Assembly (NCBI GenBank): GCA_049424145.1
Contig: JBMSSC010000016.1
Span: 1 to 30,743, forward strand
Direction of reading: 5' to 3'
DNA from: Bdellovibrionia bacterium
GTDB lineage: Bacteria > Bdellovibrionota > UBA1018
Length of the DNA stretch: 30,743 nucleotides
In this document: positions 4,584 to 12,225 of the stretch, one piece after another
Numbering within the stretch: the stretch's first letter is position 1
How the letters are laid out: every line of letters begins with the position of its first letter
Notes under the pieces: model-generated
Seen by the model: only the letters and a program-made list of their open reading frames with translations
Databases searched by the model: none
Told to the model about the DNA's origin: nothing
Translations under genes and position numbers: made by a program

Positions 4584-6131
4584 TCACCAATAAGGATTAT
4601 AATAAGGTTCGTCTGAGGATGAAGCTCCTGAAGCAGGAGTTTGAGGCCGAAAACCGGGAGAAGACCCCCCTCGAACTACACCCTGAGAGGAACCCTGAGT
4701 TGCCGTTTGAGGCTTCAAGGGAGCATTGAGAAAATAACGATTCACGGGCACATCAAAAAAGTAGGCTCGTTTCACTTCTGAATCTGAGTTTTTATCCAGA
4801 GATCCAGAAGGAACAGCAACCATCTCCTCGTCTCCTGTATAAAATTTAGGCTGCTGAGGAGTAGGTTTCGTTGCCTGAGGAGATTGCAGTGTCTGAGGGG
4901 TCTGAGAAGTCCCCGAAACCCCAGGAAACGTGGCGGTTGTCGTAGTTGAGTTAAAGGCGTTCTGATTCGAGATGTACTGATTAAACGCATCGACCTTCTC
5001 TCCGCGCGCTTGATTGTAAAGAATACGCTCGACGCTTATTTTTTTAGGATCCTTCGACTCATCCTCTTTCACTTTCATCAACTCGGTTTGCCTCGTTTTG
5101 CCTTGCTTCTGACTCAGCAGGGTCTCGGTGAGATCATTCGGCGCATGATCTTTTTTTCGATCCGAACCAAAGTGTTTGTCATAGTAAGCCAGAGCCTTCT
5201 CATAGGCGACGCGGTCGTAGCGATTGGGTCCAGATTCAGGAACCTCAAAACTGCCTTTCGAAGGATCATTCGGATCTTTTGGAATTTTTTTAAATCGAAT
5301 GAAGTCATTGATGTCTGGCTTATAAATCCCAAATTGCTCGGCCATCACACCATCTTGAACTTGATCTAAGGAGTTAGCCTGCTGAGGCGCACTGAGCATC
5401 CGACCTGCTTTGTCTCTCAGTTCATCATACTTCATGAAATACGAACTTTGGGCCCACTTGGCCGAAGGGGAGCCCACTTCAATAGGAACGGAGCGATCGG
5501 AAGTGATCGATTTGGGGCCTTCAACCAGCCTCAGACACTGAGTCCGGTCCTCTGAGAACTGAGCACAAACCAATTGGTTTATGCTTTCATGATTTTTCTG
5601 AAGGGCTCGCCGGAGCCTTGGGTACCACAGCTGGTTCAGGCGGATGTATCGCTCCGCGCAATCATCCGTGTCTTCGGTGGGGCCACAAAAACTGCCCAAT
5701 AAACTCCGCTTTGAGCCTTGATCAGGAGAGAGAAGCAAAAAATCCATCTTTTTTCGGATATAATCGCCTTGAAGAGCGATGTTTTCATTTGCTCTTTGAT
5801 AATAACACTCCGGACCGCAACGTTCATATTGGGGATCAACGCTCAAGACAGGATGATTAAGAGAGGAGCCGGAATCAGGCGCCTGAGGCAGGACGCCTGA
5901 GGAAACCGGAGGGGCAGCAGGCCGATCGGAAGAAGCTTGCGACGGGGGTTGCACCAGCGACTGAGTGGAACCTGCACTGATTGAAGCAGGCCCTGTTGCA
6001 AACGCTGGCAGTACGCCCCCGGAAGCCGTTGCTAGAAAAGCCCAAAAAAGGAGTGAGGGCGAATCTGAAAGAACTGAGAACCTTGCATGACAAAGGAATT
6101 GAGCTGGACGTGATGCCTTTTTTAACCTCAC
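4584..6131 (-). CDS. Hypothetical secreted protein, Cys-containing, with low-complexity S/P/Q/T linkers
   Basis: 515-codon ORF. Hydrophobic segment ending LPAFA (signal-peptide-like), six Cys in the central domain, good upstream promoter. Exact start uncertain. Confidence 0.75.
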   Translation of the reverse strand: MRLKKASRPAQFLCHARFSVLSDSPSLLFWAFLATASGGVLPAFATGPASISAGSTQSLVQPPSQASSDRPAAPPVSSGVLPQAPDSGSSLNHPVLSVDPQYERCGPECYYQRANENIALQGDYIRKKMDFLLLSPDQGSKRSLLGSFCGPTEDTDDCAERYIRLNQLWYPRLRRALQKNHESINQLVCAQFSEDRTQCLRLVEGPKSITSDRSVPIEVGSPSAKWAQSSYFMKYDELRDKAGRMLSAPQQANSLDQVQDGVMAEQFGIYKPDINDFIRFKKIPKDPNDPSKGSFEVPESGPNRYDRVAYEKALAYYDKHFGSDRKKDHAPNDLTETLLSQKQGKTRQTELMKVKEDESKDPKKISVERILYNQARGEKVDAFNQYISNQNAFNSTTTTATFPGVSGTSQTPQTLQSPQATKPTPQQPKFYTGDEEMVAVPSGSLDKNSDSEVKRAYFFDVPVNRYFLNAPLKPQTATQGSSQGVVRGGSSPGFRPQTPASGASSSDEPYYNPYW

Positions 6132-6468: not shown

Positions 6469-7536
6469 ATGATCCAAGACCCTCAGCCGCCGCCTCGAAT
6501 TCACTTGATTGGTTTTGGAAGCCAGGGATCAGCCTGGGCGCAGTGTTTAAAAACCTCGGGCTGGCAAACACGGGTTTACCTGCCTCAAACCCAGAGCACC
6601 TCTTGGCAAAAGGCTCAGTCCCTGGGGTTTGAACCCAGGCGCATCCAGGAGCTGGGCTCGGATCTCATGCAAGATGCTCCCAGCCACCCCCATGCTCTTT
6701 TGGCCTTGCTCTGCCCCGATAGCCAAATTCCGATCGTCTATGAGACGCACCTCAAGGATTTGCCTTTAGATCTTTGTTTGATCCTCGCTCACGGTTTTGC
6801 CCTGTACTCGTCGGATCTCCAACTGAGGGGTCCCCACCATCGAGCAGCGCTTTTAGCTCCCAAAGCCATTGGACCCAAGCTCCTGGAGAATTTTCAAAGG
6901 CATCAACCCACTGCCCACGGACTTTCGGCAGCGTTTTATGCTCCAGGCGTCAGTCCACCGAACGCCCAGGAGTTCAGGAGGCTCGATGATCCAACTCCCC
7001 TGGAGGACTTCAAGCGAGTTCAACAGGTGGCTCTGGGCTTGGGATTTCAACCACAAAACCTCATCCCCGCGTCGTTTGAGCAAGAGACCATCGGAGACTT
7101 GATCTAGGAGCAGGGTCTGCTTTGCGGCGGGATTTTTAACCTCTTGCTTGAAACGTTTCAAGCCATGGACTCCGCAGGAATTCCCCGCGCGCTCATCTGG
7201 GAGGAGTGCGTGACCGAACTGGAGCTCATTGCCGGGCTCATTCGAAGCCAAGGCCTTTCAAAAAGCTTTCAGGCCATTAGTCAAGCCGCCCAGTGTGGAA
7301 CCCTCAGCATGGGGGAGAGCCTTCAGAAGGCAGGACTCAGGGACCTGTTTCAATCTCAAGCCCAGTGGATTCGAGAGGGAGGATTTGCTGAGTTTTTCAA
7401 GTCAGGCGAGTGGAAGGGCAAGGCCCAAGAGTTTACTGGGATTTTAAGCCACTGGGAGTCCAAGCTCCGCACTGACCTCGAGCCCATCCCTCAAACCCTC
7501 TGCCCCCCTCAGAAAGAGAACAACACCCATGAGTAG
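6469..7536 (+). pseudogene. ilvC: IlvC-like ketol-acid reductoisomerase family gene (probable ketopantoate reductase role) interrupted by one in-frame TAG at 7105-7107; nonsense mutation, readthrough or sequence error
   Basis: IGFGSQGSAWA Rossmann motif, PD, LAHGF, APK-x-x-G, then FEQETIGDLI*EQGLLCGG and WEECVTELELI, matching KARI F.EETETDLFGEQ.VLCGG and FECLHELKLI. ORFs 6469-7107 and 7144-7536 are in the same frame and join into 355 codons. Confidence 0.85.
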
Positions 7537-8413
7537 TAGCCTCACCACCAAGCCCGTCACCGTCAAATGGGTTGCAGCCCAAAAGGGAAGACAAAAGTTC
7601 ACCATGCTTACGGCCTATGATTACCCCACTTCCGTTTTACTCGATGAAACCGGAGTGGATCTTTTATTAGTCGGCGACAGCGTGGCCACCGTCCTCTTTG
7701 GCGAGCCCAACACGTTATCCGTTACGATGGATGATCTGCTTCGCCATACTCGAGCAGTGACGCGAGGAGCAAAACGGGCCATGGTCATTGGGGACATGCC
7801 TTTTATGAGTTACCAGGTGAGCGCTGAGCAGGCCTTAATCAATGCCGGCCGCTTTTTGAAAGAAGGCTTAGCCCAGGGAGTGAAGCTCGAGGGCGGAAAA
7901 GAAATGGCAGAGCCGGTTCGTGCCATCACACGAGCAGGAATTCCTGTGATGGGACACATTGGACTGACGCCTCAGAGCATTCACGCCCTGGGATCCTATC
8001 GGACTCACGGAAAAACAGAGACCGAGCAGACCTACCTGCTTGAGTCAGCCCATGAGTTAGCCGAAGCCGGAGCCTTTGCATTGGTGCTGGAATGCGTTGA
8101 GGAGTCCTTAGCTGCTCGCATCACCCAAGAAATCAAAATCCCCACCATTGGAATTGGCTCAGGTCCCGCCTGTGACGGTCAAGTTCTAGTGACGCATGAT
8201 TTAGTGGGACTGACGGCAGGACGAGTGCCCCAGTTTGTCAAGCCCCTGGCAGCGCTCAAGATTCCGTTTCAGCATGCGGTCTCAGAGTTCATCCAAAGAA
8301 CCAAAAGCCTACCCATTGTGAATCCCAACATTCAACCCGAGCTCCCCTCCCCTGGACTGGTGCGAGACCTCCCTTTGACTCCCTCAGAGCCCAAAGATGT
8401 TTCTAGCCATTGA
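7529..8413 (+). CDS. panB: 3-methyl-2-oxobutanoate hydroxymethyltransferase
   Basis: MLTAYDY, LLVGDSV, GDMPFMSY, VKLEGG, GHIGLTPQS, PTIGIGSG, DGQVLVTHD. Confidence 0.97.
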   Translation: MSSSLTTKPVTVKWVAAQKGRQKFTMLTAYDYPTSVLLDETGVDLLLVGDSVATVLFGEPNTLSVTMDDLLRHTRAVTRGAKRAMVIGDMPFMSYQVSAEQALINAGRFLKEGLAQGVKLEGGKEMAEPVRAITRAGIPVMGHIGLTPQSIHALGSYRTHGKTETEQTYLLESAHELAEAGAFALVLECVEESLAARITQEIKIPTIGIGSGPACDGQVLVTHDLVGLTAGRVPQFVKPLAALKIPFQHAVSEFIQRTKSLPIVNPNIQPELPSPGLVRDLPLTPSEPKDVSSH

Positions 8414-9239
8414 TATCGGCAACACGCAGACGGTGATTGGGTATTTCATCCACGGCCAATTGCAGCGCCAGTGGAGGGTGTCCACTCATCCTCTGTGCAC
8501 CGCAGATGAGTTTCTATTGAAACTCGAGGGCATGTTATCGTCCTCTCAGATTTCGCTGCGCTCAATTGACACGATCCTCACCTCTTCAGTTGTACCGGCG
8601 TTCTCAAAGATGCTCGAAGCGGCCTTTCGAGGGAAACGCTTTTACCGAATCGACTGGCAGGCTCCGTTTTCATTTCAGTTAGCGGTGGATACGCCTCAGG
8701 AAGTAGGAGCGGATCGCCTGGTGAATGCGGAGGCAGCCGTTCGGCACTATGGATTTCCGAGCATCATTGTGGACTCAGGAACCGCAACCACGATCTGTGC
8801 TGTGGGTCAAACGAACCGGGGAGAGCCCGTGTACCTTGGGGGAGCCATTATTCCGGGCATTGAGCTTTCAATGCAGGCTCTGGCACAAAAGGCCGCCCAG
8901 CTCTACAGCATTGAGTTGACACCGCCTAAAAAAGCCATTGGCTCCAACACCAGAGAAGCCTTACGCAGTGGACTCCTTTTGGGCTATGCCTGCTTGATTG
9001 ATGGGATGGTCAAGCGATTTCAAAAGGAGCTCCACTTGGAGTCTGCTCCCGTAATCGCAACCGGAGGCGTGAGCTACTTAATGAAGGACCTCACACAAAG
9101 CATCACGCACTTTGATCCCGATTTGACACTGAAAGGAATCGCTTCACTTTATGGATCCCTGGGTTCAAGATCATCTCAGAGCGAGTTTAACGGGCAAGAA
9201 AATTTTACTCGGGATCACGGGGAGCATCGCCGCATTTAA
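8397..9239 (+). CDS. coaX: Type III pantothenate kinase
   Basis: LAIDIGNT, SSVVP, EVGADR, IVDSGTATT, GGAIIPG, VIATGG, LTLKG. Confidence 0.95.
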   Translation: MFLAIDIGNTQTVIGYFIHGQLQRQWRVSTHPLCTADEFLLKLEGMLSSSQISLRSIDTILTSSVVPAFSKMLEAAFRGKRFYRIDWQAPFSFQLAVDTPQEVGADRLVNAEAAVRHYGFPSIIVDSGTATTICAVGQTNRGEPVYLGGAIIPGIELSMQALAQKAAQLYSIELTPPKKAIGSNTREALRSGLLLGYACLIDGMVKRFQKELHLESAPVIATGGVSYLMKDLTQSITHFDPDLTLKGIASLYGSLGSRSSQSEFNGQENFTRDHGEHRRI

Positions 9240-10452
9240 GGCCTGTGACGTGATCCGATTTCTTCGAGCCTGTGGGGCTCAAGTGCGAGTTGTGCTCTCA
9301 GAGGGAGCAGAGAACTTTGTCACTGCAACCACCCTGGAGACACTCTCAGACGAGCCAGTGAACCAGAGTTTTTGGGTTCAGCCTCATCAACTGGGTAGCC
9401 CGATTCGTCATGGAACTCACCACATTGCCACAGCCCGGTGGGCCGATTTGATTCTTGTGGCTCCAGCGACGGCGCACTTTTTAGCCAAAGCGGCGTTAGG
9501 ACTCGCCGATGACCTCTTGTGCACGGAGCTTTTAGCTTTTTCGGGCCCCTTGCTCGTGGTGCCTGCGATGAATCCTACGATGTTTCAACACCCAGCGGTT
9601 CAGCAGAACGTGCGCACGCTTGAGCAAAGAGGGGTGGAGATCTTAGGTCCAACCTGGGGCGCAACCTCATGCGGGGAGGAGGGCTTAGGGCGGATGCTCG
9701 AGCCTGATCGGATCGTTGAAGAAGTGGCTCAGACGTTTTACCAAAAGCCGACGGGCAAGAAACTCCTCATCTCTCTTGGACCCACCCAAAGCCGATTGGA
9801 TCCCGTGCGCTTCCTCAGCAATCGATCCAGTGGCAAAATGGGAGCCTCGCTTTGCTGGGCTGCACGGGAGGCAGGTTTTCAGGTCACAGCGATCTGTGGC
9901 CCCCTGAGCTCAAAACTCCCTCAAAGCACAGGCCCGGGCTCTGCGCTTGAGATCATTCACGTGGAGACCGCCCAAGCCATGAGCGAGGCGGTCTTAAGCC
10001 ACTGGAGCCATTCTGATGCCTATCTGGGCGCCGCCGCCGTTCTGGATTGGGAGTTCAAAAACCCGAGCTCCCAGAAGCTGAAGAAAGAAGATGGCCCCCC
10101 CAGAGTGGAGTTTCAAAAAACGAGGGACCTTCTGGCCGAAGTTTGCCTCAGAAAGGCACCTCATCAGTGGGTCTTAGGCTTTGCCGCTGAGACGGACCAC
10201 CCGCTGGAGCATGGACGCAGTAAATTGAAGAGAAAAAACTGTGACGCCCTATTTGTCAATGATGTCTCCCAAGAGGGTTTAGGATTTGACTCCACGCAAA
10301 ATGCCGGCTGGTGGATGGAACCGAGCGGGCGTTGTGAGGAGATTTCAGCCCGCCCCAAATCCGAGGTTGCACGATGGATCATAAGAGAAGTCACTCAAGC
10401 ACTCAAAGTACTCTGCTCCCCGTCCCCCCCCTCTGACAACCAAGGACTTTAA
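9151..10452 (+). CDS. coaBC: Bifunctional phosphopantothenoylcysteine decarboxylase / phosphopantothenate-cysteine ligase
   Basis: GITGSIAAFK, APATA, PAMN-x-x-M, CGEEG-x-GRM, DPVRFLSNRSSGKMG, GFAAET, NDVS...GF. Confidence 0.96.
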   Translation: MDPWVQDHLRASLTGKKILLGITGSIAAFKACDVIRFLRACGAQVRVVLSEGAENFVTATTLETLSDEPVNQSFWVQPHQLGSPIRHGTHHIATARWADLILVAPATAHFLAKAALGLADDLLCTELLAFSGPLLVVPAMNPTMFQHPAVQQNVRTLEQRGVEILGPTWGATSCGEEGLGRMLEPDRIVEEVAQTFYQKPTGKKLLISLGPTQSRLDPVRFLSNRSSGKMGASLCWAAREAGFQVTAICGPLSSKLPQSTGPGSALEIIHVETAQAMSEAVLSHWSHSDAYLGAAAVLDWEFKNPSSQKLKKEDGPPRVEFQKTRDLLAEVCLRKAPHQWVLGFAAETDHPLEHGRSKLKRKNCDALFVNDVSQEGLGFDSTQNAGWWMEPSGRCEEISARPKSEVARWIIREVTQALKVLCSPSPPSDNQGL

Positions 10453-11370
10453 ATGATCCACCACCGCGCACCCCAAGTCATCTCCAGCCTGAAGGAAATT
10501 CGCCAGTGGCGGAGCGACGCTCAGGGCCTCAAGAAGGGATCATCCGAGAAAGTCACCATTGGCTTGGTTCCCACCATGGGGGCTTTACACGAGGGGCATG
10601 CCCACTTGCTCAGAACGCTCAGACCCCGGTGTGACCTTGCCGTTCTTTCCATCTTCGTCAACCCTTTGCAGTTTGGTGCGGGAGAGGATTTAAAGACCTA
10701 TCCCAGAACCTGGGAAGAGGACCTACGGATTGCTGAGCGCGAGGGCGTGGATGTGGTGTTTGCCCCCGAGGCGCAGGAACTCTACCCTCACGGCTTTAGT
10801 ACTCAAGTCGAAGAGACTCAGCTCAGCGTACCCTTGTGTGGAGCGTTTCGTCCGGGGCATTTTCGCGGGGTGAGCACCATTGTGCTCAAGCTCTTCCACC
10901 TGGTTCAACCTCATCTGGCGCTCTTTGGGCTCAAGGACGTCCAGCAATTCTTTGTCTTAAAAAAAATGGTAGAAGACCTCAACCTGAACATCCATGTGGA
11001 AGGGGTCCCCACAGTTCGGGAATCCAGCGGACTTGCACTCTCCTCACGCAATCGTTACCTCAGTCGTGAAGAAGCCGAAAAAGCCCCCCTCCTCTATCAG
11101 TGTTTAAACCGAATCCAAGCCCAAGCCCAAAAGATCAATCCTGCTCTGAGTCCCAATGAGGGACGGGAGCAGATATTCAGACTTCTGACATTGACCCAGG
11201 AGCAATTACAGAACGCAGGCTTTAGGGTTCAGTACTTGGAATTACGACGAGTCGAGGATCTTTCGCCGATTAAAGACGGTATAAAACCCGGAGAATCCTA
11301 CGTAGTGGCTGCGGCCGCATTTCTCGGGCGCACCCGACTCATTGACAACGTGATTTTTTCAACCACCTAA
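10453..11370 (+). CDS. panC: Pantoate--beta-alanine ligase
   Basis: VPTMGALHEGH, SIFVNPLQF, RPGHFRGV, FGLKD-x-QQ, GLALSSRN, RLIDN. Confidence 0.97.
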   Translation: MIHHRAPQVISSLKEIRQWRSDAQGLKKGSSEKVTIGLVPTMGALHEGHAHLLRTLRPRCDLAVLSIFVNPLQFGAGEDLKTYPRTWEEDLRIAEREGVDVVFAPEAQELYPHGFSTQVEETQLSVPLCGAFRPGHFRGVSTIVLKLFHLVQPHLALFGLKDVQQFFVLKKMVEDLNLNIHVEGVPTVRESSGLALSSRNRYLSREEAEKAPLLYQCLNRIQAQAQKINPALSPNEGREQIFRLLTLTQEQLQNAGFRVQYLELRRVEDLSPIKDGIKPGESYVVAAAAFLGRTRLIDNVIFSTT

Positions 11371-11418: not shown

Positions 11419-12225
11419 TCAGTGCTTCAGCGCCTGACTGAGTCCACCCTCTTGAACTGGGAGCCCAGCGGACGATTTCTCCCCCGCTCCTTGGCGGGCC
11501 TCCGAAGATGCACCTCCTCTTGAGCTGGAACGAGAATGGTTCTTTTTAGGAAACGTAATCTTCACCGACAGCATGGACTGCCGACCTTGAAGGGCTTCTC
11601 TTGGGATCTCAGGCAAAACCTGAAATACAATGGAAGAATTTCCATCTGCCTCAACGGGAACGCACTCACGCCTGCCGAGCTCCTTGGCGTAAGCATGCTT
11701 CATTCGTTGGATGAATGCTTCGGTCTGGACTTGCTTTTCCTCAGGCCGCACGTCTACGGTTGTTTGGCCGTCCTTCTCGTCCAAATCCTCCTCAGAGGCA
11801 TTCTGTGAGTCAGGACTTCCCACTTTAATCACCATGTTGCTGGTCAGGTTTCGATTTAATTTAAAACAAAGAGTCTTCGTACTCATCATTCTACGACTCG
11901 GATTGCGTTTCTCCTGTTGACCCTCCTCATCCGAACTCGGCTCCTCAGAACTACCGTCCTCGGAAGATAAATCCATTTCAAAAATAATCTCATCGTCATC
12001 CGAGTGACGATCCGGACGCAAGTAATGAACCTGAATTCCCTCAAGAATCGTGGTGGGCCTTGCAATCGACGAACTCGCTACAGCCCCAGAGACTGACGCC
12101 TTGTCATCTTCCTGCCCTGCCAAAACTAGCCTTGAATCGACCAAAAGAGCCAAGGCAAAAAATTGAAATCCAAACAAAATAGAACTGTATTTATTTTTAT
12201 TCATATATTTATATTTATTTTTCAC
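11419..12225 (-). CDS. Hypothetical secreted protein with acidic/Ser-rich segments
   Basis: 268-codon ORF with a basic N-terminus, hydrophobic core and VLA|G cleavage-like site. No recognisable domain. Confidence 0.65.
   Translation of the reverse strand: MKNKYKYMNKNKYSSILFGFQFFALALLVDSRLVLAGQEDDKASVSGAVASSSIARPTTILEGIQVHYLRPDRHSDDDEIIFEMDLSSEDGSSEEPSSDEEGQQEKRNPSRRMMSTKTLCFKLNRNLTSNMVIKVGSPDSQNASEEDLDEKDGQTTVDVRPEEKQVQTEAFIQRMKHAYAKELGRRECVPVEADGNSSIVFQVLPEIPREALQGRQSMLSVKITFPKKNHSRSSSRGGASSEARQGAGEKSSAGLPVQEGGLSQALKH

Follow-up and report, generated by a model that had tools for sequence, protein, structure and literature searches.

An in-frame amber codon in an IlvC-derived reductase gene of a Bdellovibrionia assembly, most likely a consensus error

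IlvC-fold enzymes in pantothenate synthesis

In several bacteria, the step of pantothenate synthesis that is carried out by the ketopantoate reductase PanE can be filled by an enzyme of the IlvC fold. Published reports describe a Buchnera ilvC that complements panE (PMC4306246), IlvC serving the ketopantoate reductase step in Corynebacterium glutamicum and Thermotoga maritima (PMC4353338, PMC7883664), and IlvC as a third reductase in Bacillus subtilis, where PanG is a PanE paralogue and not a DUF2520 protein (PMC11487621). In these reports such IlvCs are dual-use enzymes shared with branched-chain amino acid synthesis, whereas the Bdellovibrionota gene described here, which has the fold and the probable task in common with them, appears to be dedicated, as it stands in a panB operon, is fused to PanB in one relative and occurs in genomes without detectable ilvD. 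A literature search outside most subscription journals found no paper on an IlvC-derived subfamily in Bdellovibrionota. Its members are annotated as ketol-acid reductoisomerase (KARI) and would likely represent a third interchangeable enzyme for the same step besides PanE and DUF2520, a point of modest value.

The gene lies in a window of 30,743 nucleotides, the whole stretch of DNA analysed here, from a Bdellovibrionia bacterium (contig JBMSSC010000016.1 of assembly GCA_049424145.1; its genome G000, 95% complete, comprises 193 contigs with a total of 2.69 Mb and, going by the names of homologs, likely belongs to Bdellovibrionota), and it is interrupted by an in-frame TAG. The organism itself most likely lacks the amber that had been flagged. 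Because nearly identical DNA in another sample reads a Ser codon at this position, an error with no special decoding is the most likely explanation.

A probable ketopantoate reductase at the head of a CoA operon

The reductase gene (6469..7536, plus strand) consists of 355 codons and encodes a KARI_N and a KARI_C domain. It is followed on the same strand by panB, encoding ketopantoate hydroxymethyltransferase (7529..8413), a gene that begins shortly before the reductase gene ends, and then by coaX for a type III pantothenate kinase (8397..9239), coaBC with Flavoprotein and DFP domains (9151..10452), and panC for pantoate-beta-alanine ligase (10453..11370). The first-pass annotation had called the gene ilvC-like, which is right as regards the fold: the two halves match KARI_N with 57.8 bits and KARI_C with 60.7 bits, both above the cut-off, in the two-domain layout of class I KARI IlvC (TIGR00465, NF004017; PF07991 plus PF01450; PDB 5e4r_A and 8ep7_A). 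The likeness stops short of the branched-chain amino acid enzyme, as the protein falls below the ilvC equivalog cut-offs (P0001 scores 115.5 bits against 226.15 for TIGR00465 and 128.8 against 336 for NF004017) and is more likely a ketopantoate reductase. Low scores are shared across the subfamily, with P0001 and five intact members at 90-133 bits for TIGR00465, below the cut-off that the canonical P0090 exceeds.

Homology searching found 93 proteins, comprising the truncated product of the window gene, 86 members of the subfamily and 6 canonical KARIs; the subfamily loci are L002-L014 and L160-L192 in addition to window 6469-7536. In alignment with the canonical KARIs, the motifs G-x-G-S-Q-G, H-G and A-P-K and the residues D210, E214, E246 and E250 coincide, which we take to be the metal and catalytic ligands of KARIs, and the subfamily keeps the acidic and His/Lys positions of the solved structures. 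It differs from canonical KARIs in having APK-AIGP for APK-GPGH, Ser for Gly at 213, Thr or Ser for His at 249, and Glu for Lys at 252. It also differs from IlvC in its place before panB and in its occurrence in genomes without detectable ilvD or true AHAS.

These genomic relationships were examined in a set of 61 genomes (G000 and 60 relatives), and since these are kin, their counts are given without a statistic. KARI_C was matched in 14 of the 61, with the gene directly before panB in all 14, and among 33 further loci panB stood right behind the gene in 28, the other five ending too early to tell. One relative, G042, has the reductase fused to PanB in a single open frame of 707 codons (L097:3349-5469, G042:C2). 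No ilvD (ILVD_EDD_N) was found in any of the 61 genomes, and no AHAS (TIGR00118) over the cut-off, with weaker matches to thiamine enzymes in 31; both models detected their targets in 14 of 14 controls. One thiamine-dependent enzyme in G000 (C35:19619-21304) scores 348 bits against the AHAS model, whose cut-off is 538. DUF2520 proteins, which we take to be PanG ketopantoate reductases, occur in 14 other genomes, directly before panB in 13, and never together with the reductase gene (0 of 14). ApbA_C occurs in 14 genomes, two of them shared with the reductase gene, and both of these are over the PanE cut-off. At least one of the reductase gene, DUF2520 and ApbA_C is carried by 36 of the 40 genomes with panB, and none of the 21 genomes without panB has the reductase gene or DUF2520.

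The slot before panB, the mutual exclusion with DUF2520, the absence of detectable ilvD and AHAS, and scores below the ilvC cut-offs with the KARI positions kept thus make it likely that the product of the gene is a ketopantoate reductase of IlvC descent, dedicated to this one task. The enzyme, encoded at the head of the panB-coaX-coaBC-panC operon, would likely reduce ketopantoate to pantoate.

An amber codon in an otherwise intact frame

Window 7096-7113 reads GAC TTG ATC TAG GAG CAG, or D-L-I-stop-E-Q, so that an in-frame TAG occupies codon 213 (7105..7107, plus strand). The TAG is real as a feature of the assembly, and it was reproduced in none of the four public sequencing runs that contain parts of the window. 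The first-pass annotation had described a single amber inside an otherwise intact ilvC-like frame that stays open to 7536, and this description was borne out throughout. With the TAG taken as X, frame 6469-7536 is 355 codons long and closes with another TAG, overlapping the panB start codon (ATG at 7529). Its further statement that no other lesion is visible also agrees with the alignment: taking the columns with at least 80% conservation in the subfamily, the window protein keeps 49 of 49 before the TAG and 43 of 45 beyond. Identity to 40 homologs averages 0.50 before the TAG and 0.53 after, and to judge by its residues the gene shows no sign of decay or relaxation beyond the TAG. A second copy of the reductase gene in G000 was not found by tblastn. 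Within its N-terminal domain the window protein carries some 15-18 additional residues (window 6946-6999, residues ~160-177), an insertion missing from nearly all homologs. The truncated product of 212 residues now sits in the protein collection as P0002.

The codon at this site is a serine codon throughout the relatives. Ser is found in 86 of 86 subfamily proteins, and of the 60 relative genomes the 13 that have the gene show no stop at the site, with TCA, TCG or TCC in all 12 in which the codon was read (G053 was left out). A further 33 loci, some of which duplicate genomes already counted, all have TCN, none of them from the same species as the window (best DNA identity about 70-74%). The comparison of orthologues that had been proposed as a check therefore gives Ser in every case, encoded by TCN wherever the codon was read, and TAG in no relative. 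Two apparent stops in these comparisons were set aside: a TGA in the G057 match is the true end of the gene, and an early stop in L172 comes after a run of N. TCG, the Ser codon from which TAG had been said to lie one change away, is itself seen in another run. The DLFGEQ motif that had served as reference is that of canonical KARI, while the subfamily has D-L-[ILM]-S-E-Q.

The same DNA in other public runs

Four public DNA runs (of nine listed), from three studies, contain parts of the window, and all were compared as assembled contigs; no RNA run was listed as containing the stretch. The disputed base is 7106 (plus strand), which is A in the window, C in a contig of run X2, and a one-base uncovered gap between two contigs of run X1. 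In X2 (study P2), a 172-nt contig spans 7088-7259 with one other letter relative to the window, and its loose end before 7107 reads ...ATCTC, which makes 7105-7107 TCG (Ser). This TCG comes from one contig of depth 3.3, at a base 19 letters from the contig end, fewer than the 31 that the bridging rule of the comparison tool asks for, and the tool warns that such differences may be errors. The letter that X2 gives does, however, restore the residue shared by all relatives. In X1 (study P1), all eight listed pieces are identical to the window; coverage ends with one contig at 7105 and resumes with another at 7107, the depths being 2.7 and 3.1. A gap of one base is what k-mer assembly would be expected to leave where few reads disagree. 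X1 may be the source sample and was not counted as independent. The contigs of X3 and X4 stop short of 7106, so that A at 7106 appears in none of the four runs and TCG in one. With the 29 bases 3' of the TAG as query, metagenome_contigs gave no exact match.

A sequencing or assembly error had been among the options raised at first, to be recognised by a sense codon in the data. The codon found in X2 is exactly the Ser codon that had been proposed, which goes most of the way to settling the matter, and error is now the best supported option. We consider it most likely that the TAG is a consensus error of a low-depth metagenome assembly, in which a single C at 7106 was miscalled as A, and that the true codon is TCG (Ser213), on the basis of the TCG in X2, the X1 break at 7106, Ser in the relatives, the lack of decay, the presence of other lone stops in the assembly and the absence of detectable amber machinery. 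At a depth of 2-3, the reads would have disagreed at 7106 and the assembler would have kept the wrong base, and the living organism would make the full-length, 355-residue IlvC-derived reductase.

An unlikely alternative is a real and very recent nonsense allele, carried by some or all of the sampled population, in which TCG mutated to TAG and left a dead N-terminal fragment of 212 residues, while other strains keep TCG. The stop is indeed one step from the conserved codon, and the break in X1 would also arise with two alleles each seen once. The neighbouring 483-nt contig of X2 has four other letters relative to the window, pointing to slightly different strains in X2, so that the TCG could itself be a strain difference. 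Loss of the enzyme would have to be borne by a genome with no PanE over the cut-off and no DUF2520, but pantothenate might be imported if the organism lives as a predator or scavenger. Against such an allele, the A was recovered in no run, the gene is free of decay elsewhere, and panB, coaX, coaBC and panC are all open. A similar stop in MraY of the same assembly, within a cluster of miscall-like changes, also speaks against it. MraY is essential.

Other lone stops in the assembly

Low-depth metagenome-assembled genomes contain spurious in-frame stops, and the amber in the reductase gene resembles these in being one base from a conserved codon, unreproduced in other runs, and one of several in its genome, some of which fall in same-direction clusters; the likeness is known here from contigs, and no specific difference was seen. 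For a wider view of G000, 2,485 frames from 2.78 Mb of the relative G005 (about three quarters of that genome) were compared with it, giving 1,246 alignments with 344,678 interior codons and 33 stops. Inspection by eye removed 22 of the 33 rows as gene ends, frameshift tails or shadow frames, leaving 11 lone in-frame stops (7 TAG, 2 TGA and 2 TAA). The genes with a lone TAG, named from the aligned residues, include the window reductase, MraY, a YchF-like gene, a molybdopterin oxidoreductase-like gene, a helicase and an insertion-sequence gene. Two further lone TAGs came from other screens, a conserved-gene comparison and a reference-free screen, for 13 lone stops in all. The reference-free screen is no census, as 26 of its 29 hits were adjacent same-frame genes by eye and it missed the window's own TAG. 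An earlier impression from a set of 597 genes, that all lone stops were TAG, was weakened once the enlarged reference gave TGA and TAA cases.

Two of these stops sit among other changes. In mraY (G000:C1:55753), a TAG takes the place of Leu, and two Phe close by are changed to Ile, all by T to A. In the Walker A motif of an ABC gene (G000:C13:8259), a TGA replaces Gly, with two more changes toward T that turn a neighbouring Asn into Ile and a neighbouring Gly into Trp. Each cluster packs three changes into about 15 bases, all of them toward A on one strand, and, as a pattern of letters, likely stems from one poor read; the C to A at 7106 has the same direction. A TGA and a TAG lie 384 bases apart in one helicase-like gene on the minus strand (G000:C27:13124 and C27:12740), and six TAG and two TAA make up the further lone stops (G000:C42:9130, C14:16575, C93:5163, C151:340, C176:1771, C131:5634, C18:28739 and C147:4705), among which C18:28739 and C147:4705, in insertion-sequence-like genes, may be true pseudogenes. 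The reciprocal comparison on G005 gave 76 stops, nearly all of them frameshift tails or shadow frames, with two lone cases, both at gaps at gene starts. G005 has a different error mode and is therefore a weak control. Many frameshifts in its ribosomal protein and EF-Tu genes (e.g., L032, L066) are likely indel errors of the G005 assembly. With about 12 lone nonsense codons in the G000 assembly, apparent pseudogenes or recoding there need checking against reads.

Decoding of amber codons

Readthrough or ambiguous decoding of amber, whether through a suppressor tRNA, pyrrolysine, or a near-cognate tRNA stimulated by the hairpin, with ambers tolerated in several genes, is highly improbable. What lends it some colour is the count of TAG among the lone stops, 9 of 13 against a fraction of 0.40 expected from uniform errors (p ~0.03, for a hand-picked set and post hoc), together with the hairpin directly 3' of the TAG and the 95% completeness of the genome, which leaves room for a tRNA missing from the assembly. 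The insertion of a single amino acid is hard to reconcile with the residues aligned to the lone TAGs, which are of seven kinds (S, V, I, L, V, W, G and Y), and lone TGA and TAA also occur. Against the error reading stand this lean to TAG and the alignment of some TAGs to Val, Ile or Gly, whose G005 codons may lie more than one step from TAG.

The decoding machinery offers no support. No CUA tRNA is present among the 40 tRNAs that ARAGORN finds in G000 at its default score (RF00005 gives the same 40 places). A lowered-score run with introns was discarded, as it produced many spurious Pyl, SeC and Stop calls and was noise for all three stops. The best pylS match in G000 has 24 bits against a cut-off of 178, with the control over the cut-off in 1 of 14 genomes, and pylB reaches 69 bits against 348; the proposed search, run for pylS, pylB and a CUA tRNA, thus turned up none of them. 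RF1 is over its cut-off and has no internal stop. The first stop in 515 conserved genes of G000 is TAA in 217, TGA in 175 and TAG in 123, and TAG also ends the reductase gene itself. That TAG is a normal stop here, with global recoding excluded, was already the earlier view and is upheld by these data: map, rpmJ, rpsM, rpsK, rplF, rpmC and rplP, and also rplQ, terminate in TAG (gene names read from translations). Genome-wide reassignment would look different, as TAG is a common terminator, lone internal TAGs number about 7 in 344,678 codons and fall at mixed residues, and RF1 is intact. Pyrrolysine (pylTSBCD) and amber suppressor tRNA systems share with this locus the in-frame TAG and nothing else; unlike them, it comes with neither pylS nor pylB over the cut-off and with no CUA tRNA, its TAG is not conserved, and a sense codon is read in another run.

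The hairpin right after the TAG does fold, as had been noted, but is weak and recurs where there is no stop. It has 6 base pairs (7108..7122, plus strand) and a predicted -5.1 kcal/mol with a z of -2.3 for these hand-picked 15 nt, while three longer windows around it give z values of 0.33, -1.58 and 0.44, two of them near zero. Of 12 relatives with a Ser codon, 5 form a hairpin (-2.3 to -6.7 kcal/mol) at this very position and 7 lack one, so the structure follows from the codons of E-Q-x-L-L, here E-Q-G-L-L, as a by-product. An Rfam scan found no match close to the gathering score near the TAG, and promoter and terminator scans gave nothing linked to it. Site-specific readthrough, which had been one of the original options, accordingly finds no backing: Ser stands in every relative examined, the searches revealed neither a suppressor nor a pyl system, and some stop-free relatives also have the hairpin. 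We give equally little credence to a population that still ends genes with TAG but tolerates ambers because termination is weak or a suppressor tRNA escaped assembly, so that in-frame TAGs persist in several conserved genes, among them those of the reductase, MraY and YchF; if true, a bacterium would have been caught in nature just as reassignment of a stop codon begins.

Surroundings of the operon

Two long minus-strand frames flank the operon, at 4584-6131 and 11419-12225, and neither of them matched Pfam at E 0.01. Upstream of frame 4584-6131, the minus strand carries a sigma-70-like site (6308-6279) that matches at 11 of 12 positions.
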